Assembly: GCF_934636665.1 (NCBI RefSeq)
Contig: NZ_CAKUAT010000012.1
Location: 19,470 to 83,469 of the forward strand
Reading direction: 5' to 3'
DNA length: 64,000 nucleotides
Origin: an uncultured Senegalimassilia sp.
GTDB taxonomy: Bacteria > Actinomycetota > Coriobacteriia > Coriobacteriales > Eggerthellaceae
The notes below the pieces were generated by a model that worked only from the letters and a program-made list of their open reading frames with translations, had not been told where the DNA came from and ran no database searches. A program made the position numbers and the translations under genes. Positions 12,301 through 14,031 of this stretch are shown here, piece by piece (position 1 is the first letter of the stretch; each line of letters opens with the position of its first letter).

Positions 12301-14031
12301 GCTTCGGAACTCGATGACCGGTCGTGTCATGCGTGAGGTTGTGTTCCATAGGGGGCCAATCTCATTGCCGATACTTTTGAGTCAGACAGGCATAATAAGG
12401 TCGGGAAGACGACGTTCCTCAAGCTCGTAGACGTGCTGCTCGGTGCAAATGGAAGGGATCGCCTCTACAAGGACGACGAGACGAATAGCGTCAGCGAGGA
12501 GTTGCGCGACATTATTGTTGACAAACGGGTCGTGGGAGAGATGACTCTCGTGAGCTCGTTCGAGAGGCCCTTTAACCACAGCGTTGAGCTCAAAGTGGAG
12601 CTGTTTCCAAGAGGTCGATATTTCTTTGACGGCGAGAAGGTCAATGCAGCCAAGTACAGGGAACTGTTGGGCGAGGCCTTGTTTGCGGTTGGCTCTAGCA
12701 AGCCCACGTTCCGCCAGCTCATCAAATATTTCGTGAGAGTATCCATGAGTGGGGACGACGATTCCTTCCTTAGAGCGCTGCCCAGAGCATCTATCGCTGA
12801 TTACAGGGCGGTCTACAACTATCTATTTGACATTTCGGATTCGGAACTCGACGCAAGGTTAGCTGAGCTTAACAGGGAGCTGAGCAAGCTTAGGGAATCC
12901 GTCAAGCAGTACAAGCGCCTTTCTGGTATTGAGGACGAGGAACAGCTTGCCCAAGTGGGTGTGGCGCTGGAGCGCGAGTGCCAACGCCTGGAGTCTCGGC
13001 TAGGCGACGTGCTCGATGCCGATGAGTTTAAGGCCAACAGGGAGACAATCGAGGAGGCGAGGAGTCGTTATGCCGAACTGCGCTCTGATTTGGCCGAGGT
13101 CGAATTTAGGATTGAGCGCAACAATAAGTCAATAGAGCGCTTCAGGAAGGGGGCGGCGAAACAAGCAGACCTGTCGCTTTCGCGCAGCTTCTACGACGAG
13201 GTCTGCTCCCTCATTCCCTCGGTGAACAAGACGTTTGAGGACATGGTTGCGTTCAACCGAGCGCTCTGCGAGAACGAGATAGCGTACTTCCGGGAGGTCG
13301 GGGCTGAGCTCGAATCCGAAAGAGCGGGCATCCAGGCTAAGATCGCAGCCTTCTCGGCTGAGAACTTGCGCTACCTCTCGCTCCTTGATGGCAAGGCGAT
13401 GGGCGAGTACGAAGCCCTTCTCGAAGAGTGCATGCGCCTGCGCCAGGAGATGGGCAGAAATGCTGAGGTCCTTAGCACGCTGCAAAACTATGATAATCGT
13501 ATAAAGGCACTGAAAAGTCAAATCGCAAGCCTCTCCGAGGGTGGAGAGGAACGGGAATCCTCGATCTCGAGTCATCAAGCTATGATGAATTCCTTCAATA
13601 GTTATTTTACGCCGATGGCAAATGCTGTTAACGGCGAGAGGCCCATACTGACCTACTCGACTGACACGAGCAAGTTTCCGGTGGCTATAACCGACCTCAA
13701 CGGATCAAGTACCGGCACGCGTAAGTCTCTTTTGGCAGTTTATGACCTTTCGTACCAGCAGTTCGCAATTGCTAACAAGATAGAGGTGCCTCGCTTCGTG
13801 GTTCAAGACGTCGTTGAGAATGTTGAGGGTGAAGACCTGAGGAAAATTATCGACCAAGCAAATAGCATAAATTGCCAGTTTATTATCGCCGTGCTTAAGG
13901 AGAAGCTTGATTCATCGCGGATATCCCAGGAATCACAGGACGCAATGTGCATCCTCGAACTGTCAGAGCGGGACAAACTATTCCAGGGCCTGACGGTCGA
14001 AGCAAACGAGCGGAGCCATGGTTCGGAATGA
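12281..14031 (+). CDS. SMC/Rad50-like ABC ATPase with long coiled-coil (Lamassu LmuB-like or ABC-3C-like); interrupted by a frameshift in a G5 tract at 12351-12355
   Basis: N-terminus MFIKSVRLRN…; adding one G restores …VVFHRGANLIADTFESDRHNKVGKTTFLKLVDVLLG (Walker A); ~350 aa coiled-coil; C-terminal signature/Walker B/H-loop-like SSTGTRKSLLAVYDLSY…RFVVQDVVENVEGEDL…CQFIIAV. Confidence 0.6.

Follow-up and report, generated by a model that had tools for sequence, protein, structure and literature searches.

The 64,000-nucleotide (nt) window analysed here (contig NZ_CAKUAT010000012.1, positions 19,470 to 83,469, from an uncultured Senegalimassilia sp.) carries a defence cassette whose ATPase gene is broken by the loss of one G in a short homopolymer. 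When intact, the gene encodes an SMC/Rad50-like ATPase that corresponds to the LmuB-type subunit of type II Lamassu (ABC-3C); the middle component of this system is of the MC6 family. The tract at 12351-12355 contains five Gs (G5) in the window and six (G6) in the intact alleles of near-identical DNA from other assemblies. The G5 allele is probably a single, stably inherited loss-of-function mutation, naturally occurring and recent, at a site prone to slippage.

The frameshift at the start of the ATPase gene

The ATPase reading frame (frame A) starts at ATG 12281-12283, 3' of a Shine-Dalgarno-like purine run, GGGAAGGGAAG. Its product is MFIKSVRLRNSMTGRVMREVVFHRG, which continues into the out-of-frame PISLPILL... 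and ends at TAG 12428-12430. The rest of the protein is read in a second frame (frame B) that is open from 12352 to a stop at 14029-14031, with the product (G)ANLIADTFESDRHNKVGKTTFLKL... The junction sequence is catAGGGGGccaat, in which the G5 occupies exactly 12351-12355, and the wider context of the tract in the window is ...GTGTTCCAT AGGGGG CCAATCTC... The addition of one G at the tract yields a single 583-amino-acid (aa) open reading frame (ORF); the coordinates, the two frames and the one-G repair given in an earlier note on this DNA were all correct. The repaired length matches that of the homologues, nearly all of which have 583 aa among the 120 best intact homologues listed, and the repaired protein is residue for residue the public protein P0122, found on 17 contigs. 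Because of this length and this exact match, the two ORFs are read as one broken gene and not as a chance pair. The parts of the gene are as follows.

12351-12355, plus strand: G5 homopolymer, the out-of-frame remnant of an ancestral in-frame G6 (AGG GGG GCC, Arg24-Gly25-Ala26)
12281-12430, plus strand: 5' fragment of the lmuB-like ATPase gene, with 25 native codons (beta1-beta2 and Gly25), then out of frame
12352-14031, plus strand: rest of the lmuB-like ATPase gene in the other frame, with Walker A NKVGKTT, the coiled coil and the DUF2326 C-terminal head lobe

The N-terminus of the 5' fragment is identical to that of P0001 and P0122. The frameshift breaks the codon for Gly25. This residue, conserved to at least 90% in a 78-member family alignment, lies at the start of strand beta3 (residues 25-31), which in the AlphaFold model leads to the P-loop and to the helix at residues 43-53. 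The Walker A residues G42-K43-T44-T45 lie downstream of the frameshift; in the same alignment G42 and T45 are invariant, and K43 and T44 are at least 90% conserved. The start codon and strands beta1-beta2 are therefore cut off from the Walker A motif NKVGKTT in the window, whereas the motif is uninterrupted in G6 alleles. The sole callable ORF that remains extends from GTG 12433, 3 nt past the premature stop, to 14031, and it encodes 532 aa without the P-loop. This ORF is deposited at NCBI as WP_294416120.1, under the plain name 'DUF2326 domain-containing protein' and without a frameshifted-pseudogene flag, and it represents an annotation problem in which the remnant of a frameshifted gene passes as an ordinary protein.

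Identity of the ATPase and composition of the cassette

Type II Lamassu, also termed ABC-3C, comprises an LmuA effector, an LmuC middle component and LmuB, an SMC-like ATPase (PMC10586767; bioRxiv 10.1101/2025.06.23.660979). The repaired protein has a C-terminal DUF2326 domain (Pfam, E 6e-13) and matches the PADLOC models PDC-M68B (2.7e-29) and LmuB (1.8e-17) over nearly its full length, the LmuB alignment spanning model positions 3-582 of 611. The LmuB profile is matched by 64 of the 78 family members, and a library search at E <= 1e-3 found 587 representatives. The AlphaFold (AF2) model (pLDDT 88.5, pTM 0.73) consists of an N-lobe with beta1-beta3 and the P-loop helix, helices over residues 188-451, and a C-terminal head lobe. 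In Foldseek, the best match in the Protein Data Bank (PDB) is Bacillus subtilis YydD (9a6c, E 5e-22), followed by the cryo-EM LmuB chains 9ux7, 9uxh, 9hqx and 9nyg (E 1e-13 to 5e-10) and then by Smc and Rad50. At the sequence level, neither the single protein nor the family profile matched anything in the PDB beyond coiled-coil noise, which made the fold search necessary. The SMC-like defence ATPase of the earlier note is thus borne out by the PADLOC LmuB, DUF2326 and Foldseek LmuB/YydD matches.

In the Walker B region, RFVVQDVVENV, the Asp is not followed by the usual Glu. The ratio of nonsynonymous to synonymous substitution rates (dN/dS) of the intact gene is 0.09-0.17 against two orthologous loci, L001 and L005. 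Such comparisons were limited to loci of the L001, L034 and L005 types, and loci encoding P0122 were left out as ascertained by their identical protein. Because of these low ratios, the ATPase is predicted to be functional when intact, and the gene is then under purifying selection.

Judged from the sequence, the cassette order is a 65-aa membrane protein, a 188-aa putative effector, the MC6 middle component and the ATPase, and the same order is found in the 84%-identity lineage L005. The genes beside the ATPase are listed below.

11286-11483, plus strand: 65-aa protein with one hydrophobic helix, first gene of the cassette, sequence METLNLILGIIASCASIVAAVISLSI...
11470-12036, plus strand: 188-aa protein in the effector (LmuA) position, role from position only
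12055-12300, plus strand: MC6 middle component (LmuC-like), 81 aa, intact, PF20293
14018-14695, plus strand: 225-aa ORF, overlapping the ATPase stop by 14 nt

The MC6 gene matches PF20293 (E 6.3e-11; 42.5 bits against a cut-off of 27.2), which Pfam describes as 'ABC-three component system middle component 6'. It overlaps the start of the ATPase gene by 20 nt and is kept in all related loci. The 188-aa protein is a putative effector by its position and conservation, and it has a 192-aa counterpart ORF in L005. The 65-aa ORF overlaps the 188-aa ORF by 14 nt, and its gene is conserved in L005 (5815-6012) and in all close loci. The 225-aa ORF occurs in close relatives only and is absent downstream of the ATPase gene in L005. 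The 188-aa, 65-aa and 225-aa ORFs have no family matches in Pfam, PADLOC or NCBIfam, and a promoter and terminator scan around the cassette was uninformative.

Reality and distribution of the two alleles

Homopolymer indels are a common type of sequencing error, and the window alone could not exclude that a true G6 had been miscalled as G5, an alternative that the earlier note had itself raised. However, the exact 532-aa product is found on about 12 public contigs, and all six of those read (L006-L011), from separate gut metagenomes, carry G5 at 99.93-100% identity to the window. These contigs come from MEGAHIT-style (k141), SPAdes-style (NODE) and Logan assemblies. Because the same G5 is present in six independent assemblies made by three pipelines, assembly error is effectively excluded and the G5 is real. 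The same pipelines give G6 at 19 loci, the G5 is heritably linked to other variants, and long ORFs remain intact elsewhere in the window, such as the 2353-aa ORF at 44045-51106. A miscalled tract is accordingly a most improbable explanation.

All 19 loci read that encode the intact protein carry G6, with the reading CATAGGGGGGCCAAT, and the G5 loci number seven with the window included, on near-identical DNA; the loss of one nucleotide in a G homopolymer, as first noted, is therefore upheld. A 572-aa protein, P0124, was considered as another allele and rejected, as it is the P0122 gene called from Met12; it is present in 28 index blocks, with 24 contigs read. The G5 allele accounts for about 12 of about 57 contigs, and intact G6 alleles form the majority. 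The G5 sublineage is present in at least three human cohorts. An exact-pattern scan of JGI metagenome contigs for the tract variants GGGGN{0,2}CC with flanks returned no matches and was uninformative.

Origin and age of the tract and the deletion

Besides the frameshift, the ATPase gene in the window is 100% identical to the intact allele P0122. Over 7-13 kb, with the IS3 insertion sequence (IS) upstream of the cassette excluded, the extra G is all that distinguishes five G6 loci (L012, L014, L015, L028 and L030) from the window. Because several G6 loci are otherwise identical over this distance, the lesion is a very recent slippage deletion from G6 to G5.

The tract itself is not conserved, and orthologues read AAAGGGGCC, AAGGGGGCC (in frame) and AGGGGTGCC. 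The codons at this site are CAC AAA GGG GCC in the distant orthologues L002, L004 and L005, CAT AAG GGG GCC in L034 (an in-frame G5), CAC AGG GGT GCC in the 98% identical L001, and CAT AGG GGG GCC in the G6 alleles; the orthologue forms are thus G4, in-frame G5 or G4-T-G. The tract is thus young and was built by point substitutions (AAA GGG to AAG GGG to AGG GGG) around an essential Gly codon. Runs of six or more Gs number 2 in the window against 17.9 expected, and runs of six or more Cs number 3 against 8.3 expected, so that G/C runs are depleted and not enriched. The G6 of the ON state is the only G/C run of at least six in the 21.7 kb between 2314 and 24031, and the other 38 homopolymers of at least five bases in this interval show no length difference in up to 26 assemblies.

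A further alternative, also named in the earlier note, is a fixed pseudogene: the ATPase would have been dead for a long time, together with other genes of a defence island in decay. The surroundings are indeed scarred by the IS3 element at about 9540-11052, a sugar-transferase fragment at 8485-9066, a broken UvrD-like helicase and IS256-type fragments, and the 87% orthologue in L003 has its own +2 frameshift at residue 33. An old lesion is nonetheless highly improbable, since the gene carries a single lesion and all other codons are identical to P0122. Intact G6 alleles outnumber G5 alleles (17 plus 28 against about 12 contigs), and the family is under purifying selection by the dN/dS values given above. 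The damage to the helicase is common to G5 and G6 loci, so it is older than the frameshift and unrelated to it.

Switch or single inherited mutation

Phase-variable status requires a single-locus mechanism, reversibility and a minimal switching rate (PMC11868660). Of these, only the single-locus mechanism is observed here: tract length sets the state at one locus, in frame with G6 and out of frame with G5, on otherwise identical DNA. Neither recurrent independent G5 events nor several tract lengths, either of which would be a sign of a switching rate, occur among the loci read. A hypermutable, conserved and over-long tract is likewise not found, with G6 as the greatest length and orthologues that differ. 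Reversibility was followed with a marker of the G5 lineage.

10836-10868, plus strand: patch of five single-nucleotide polymorphisms (SNPs) in the flanking IS3 transposase, window bases C,A,C,G,C

All 4 G5 loci with coverage of this patch, 1.5 kb upstream of the tract, have it, as against 0 of 13 G6 loci (Fisher p = 4.2e-4), a result that comes from a limited sampling of consensus contigs. Later SNPs are nested within the G5 group (15833T in L008 and L009; 19132A in L008). The linked patch and the nested SNPs indicate that G5 forms one clonal sublineage that has since slightly diversified. The protein look-up does not distinguish synonymous backgrounds, nor G5 from G7, as a G7 allele gives the same 532-aa product, and it would have returned all of these; it found G5 on the window haplotype and on no second DNA background. 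Revertants and G7 or G4 alleles are absent among the loci read, and G6 is also found on 1-2% divergent DNA backgrounds (L017, L019, L020 and L029).

The earlier note had proposed a possible phase-variable switch. In the full form of this alternative, the G tract would be a contingency locus, with the ATPase turned ON (G6) and OFF (G5) at high frequency, so that the population hedges immunity against the cost of an abortive-infection or anti-plasmid system. In its favour, the length change coincides exactly with the homopolymer, the surrounding DNA is otherwise identical, and G5 and G6 are found together within cohorts. The 5' position of the tract in the gene is also that of other reversible homopolymer inactivations (PMC2831843), and frameshift switching in a short tract is known from glpK in an actinobacterium, Mycobacterium tuberculosis (bioRxiv 10.1101/717272; PMC10334774). 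Against this, the tract has 6 nt when ON and 5 when OFF, which is under the 7-nt threshold used for M. tuberculosis tracts (PMC10334774) and shorter than the tracts commonly found in known phase-variable loci. Orthologues do not keep the tract, and its linkage to the flanking marker is perfect. No G7 or G4 allele was found, although a G7, with its identical product, would have been recovered, and the data show neither reversal nor a minimal rate. A true contingency locus is thus unlikely. The comparison with other strains and orthologues that the note had suggested shows that both tract lengths exist in nature, but it does not reveal a tract maintained across orthologues; the switch itself is not supported, with an ON tract of only G6, one linked haplotype and neither a revertant nor a second background for G5.

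Several points weigh against a single inherited mutation. The data are consensus contigs, in which minority G6 reads in G5 samples, or the reverse, are invisible. The haplotypes are so similar that the recurrence test depends mainly on one linked marker, and this marker sits in an IS present in several copies, which an assembler can confuse with one another. It is possible that the window and L006 share a source sample; the marker would then have been scored in three independent G5 loci. G5 and G6 also share cohorts (Hadza, MERR22-1 and the ERZ2728xxxx series), as a switch would produce. In addition, MutS/MutL are often missing in Actinomycetota, which could raise indel rates in short tracts. 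A reversible Lamassu switch of low to moderate rate, aided by weak indel repair in the phylum, is likewise unlikely; under it, OFF lineages would last as long as the system has a cost, for instance with a plasmid or prophage carried along, and G6 revertants would sweep under phage attack. Reversion from G5 to G6 could in principle occur at the ordinary rate of a short tract, which is chemically possible and would not constitute a specialised switch. A single, stably inherited G5 allele remains the favoured interpretation.

Proposed mechanism and consequences

In the proposed course of events, point substitutions would have produced AGG GGG GCC at residues 24-26 and hence a fortuitous G6 over the nearly invariant Gly25, from which one replication-slippage event would then have removed a G. 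Translation from ATG 12281 now ends at TAG 12428, and the ORF that remains (from GTG 12433) lacks beta1-beta3 and the Walker A loop, so that ATP should not be bound and the system should not fire. Defence requires all Lamassu components, including ATP binding by LmuB (PMC10586767), and Walker A Lys-to-Ala mutants abolish both the ATPase activity and the toxicity of Lamassu (bioRxiv 10.1101/2025.06.23.660979). Because published Walker A mutants lose activity, the G5 cassette should be inactive as well.

The share of G5 among the public contigs suggests that carriers tolerate the loss or gain mildly from it, for example through relief from the cost of abortive infection or of anti-plasmid activity. 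As a speculation, re-initiation at GTG 12433 might yield a P-loop-less protein that still binds its partners; such a protein might still form dimers and tie up the effector, and the OFF state would then be safe.

A full-length protein could still be made from the G5 allele by recoding, either on the ribosome (a programmed -1 frameshift) or in transcription (slippage at the G run). The frame would be regained by a -1 shift on AGG GGG C, but the zero-frame AGG GGG CCA does not fit the X XXY YYZ slippery heptamer, and all homologues listed are encoded in a single frame, which shows no conserved frameshift. Transcriptional slippage is efficient only in much longer runs, mostly of A or T. Recoding is therefore highly improbable.

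Comparison with known systems

The cassette shares with type II Lamassu (LmuA-LmuC-LmuB; DdmABC of Vibrio cholerae; YydB-YydC-YydD of B. subtilis) an SMC/Rad50-like ATPase with a long coiled coil and a DUF2326 C-lobe, and a small middle component (MC6) encoded directly upstream and overlapping the ATPase gene. Its deviant Walker B is likewise found in the solved LmuB proteins (bioRxiv 10.1101/2025.06.23.660979). It differs from type II Lamassu in that the protein in the effector position has only 188 aa, has no family match and is preceded by an extra 65-aa membrane protein. The ATPase also fits the candidate-system model PDC-M68B better than any LmuB model, and in the window it is frameshifted, with Walker A cut off from the start.

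Among known tract polymorphisms, the A7/A6 tract of Listeria monocytogenes inlA (Orsi et al. 2010, PMC2831843) is similar in being a short 5' homopolymer with natural in-frame and out-of-frame alleles that are associated with lineage. Reversion at inlA is possible at about 1e-7 to 1e-8, far under classical phase-variation rates (PMC2831843). In contrast to the window, inlA is a virulence gene with a poly(A) tract, its deletion arose at least twice and its rates have been measured; the present tract is poly(G), and one origin is seen. The M. tuberculosis glpK tract (bioRxiv 10.1101/717272; PMC10334774) resembles the present one in its actinobacterial host, its coding G/C homopolymer and its heritable ON and OFF states. 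However, glpK variants recur often across the phylogeny and revert readily, whereas no recurrence is seen here; the tracts of that survey have at least 7 nt and glpK is a metabolic gene, as against 6 nt in a defence gene. Phase-variable restriction-modification systems of Neisseria, Helicobacter and Campylobacter (PMC4209511; bioRxiv 10.64898/2026.01.10.698759) also involve a defence gene inactivated by a change in G-run length, but in those systems the tract is usually longer, persists from strain to strain and changes length inside one culture, and none of this is seen here.

The G5 allele is a clean natural example of how one slippage event can silence a defence system. In human gut populations, the intact and the broken allele circulate side by side on the same haplotype, which is useful for considering what Lamassu-type immunity costs commensals and how it turns over. 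Real as it is, the finding is of an ordinary kind and reveals no new mechanism. No paper linking Lamassu with phase variation was present among the top-ranked full-text matches, and if real switching were shown at the level of reads, it could be a previously undescribed case for Lamassu.

Neighbourhood and other disruptions

An IS3-family element at 9540-11052 (ORFs 9611-9973 and 9697-11001) adjoins the cassette upstream, with its right end (...ACAGGTCA) at about 11052. The G6 loci L013, L026 and L027 have different DNA to the left of 11052, with PDDEXK_2, DnaB, HNH and SSB genes, so the cassette is found in at least two upstream contexts. The interval 8485-9066 encodes a C-terminal fragment of a bacterial sugar transferase (Bac_transf) that stops abruptly before the IS3 element and is probably truncated. 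The UvrD/PcrA-like helicase gene at 14724-16739 appears dead in G5 and G6 loci alike. Its 5' end is replaced by a minus-strand remnant of an IS3-type transposase at 14861-15166, with the profile match starting at model position 46-48 or so, and an in-frame stop at 16230-16232 splits UvrD-helicase from UvrD_C.

Other disruptions are seen in relatives of the ATPase gene. The frameshift of L003 (2978-3090 of GTDB contig CAVKNR010000301.1) reads GCCTTTTTGAATC against GCCTTTGAATC in its relatives. It also falls between the N-terminal strands and Walker A, and it may be an independent inactivation or an error of the metagenome-assembled genome; the bin label, Sodaliphilus sp., looks inconsistent with the Coriobacteriia-like content. 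L032 and L033, from two samples, both begin at 13088 (their positions 1-20 correspond to 13088-13107 of the window) and share a G-to-T change at 13102 that turns Glu275 GAA into TAA. Either an independent second knockout or an artefact at a junction could explain this stop, which is unproven as a second loss-of-function allele; the predicted 274-aa and 263-aa N-terminal fragments of such an allele are not in the public collection. A 269-aa cluster member, P0125, had first suggested a second disruption; in L031 its split is an artefact of a scaffold N-gap.

The cassette lies within a dense island of defence and abortive-infection genes at 2433-24031, which also contains the following features.

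3894-4856, minus strand: Abi_2
5288-5623, minus strand: RelB
6650-8319, minus strand: DUF4411 and Peptidase_M78
17577-18413: Abi_C
21012-22990, minus strand: AAA_15/AAA_21 SMC_N-like ATPase with a 228-aa partner
20234-20749 and 23368-23790, minus strand: IS256-type transposase fragments

L023, L024 and L022 have dense SNP clusters at 17669-18077 and 18164-18431, in and after Abi_C, while the rest of the locus is identical; these clusters look like short recombination patches in a defence gene. Outside the island, the ORF at 44045-51106 encodes an intact 2353-aa surface-type protein with LRR_5 (BspA-like), Big_1 and CHB_HEX_C domains.

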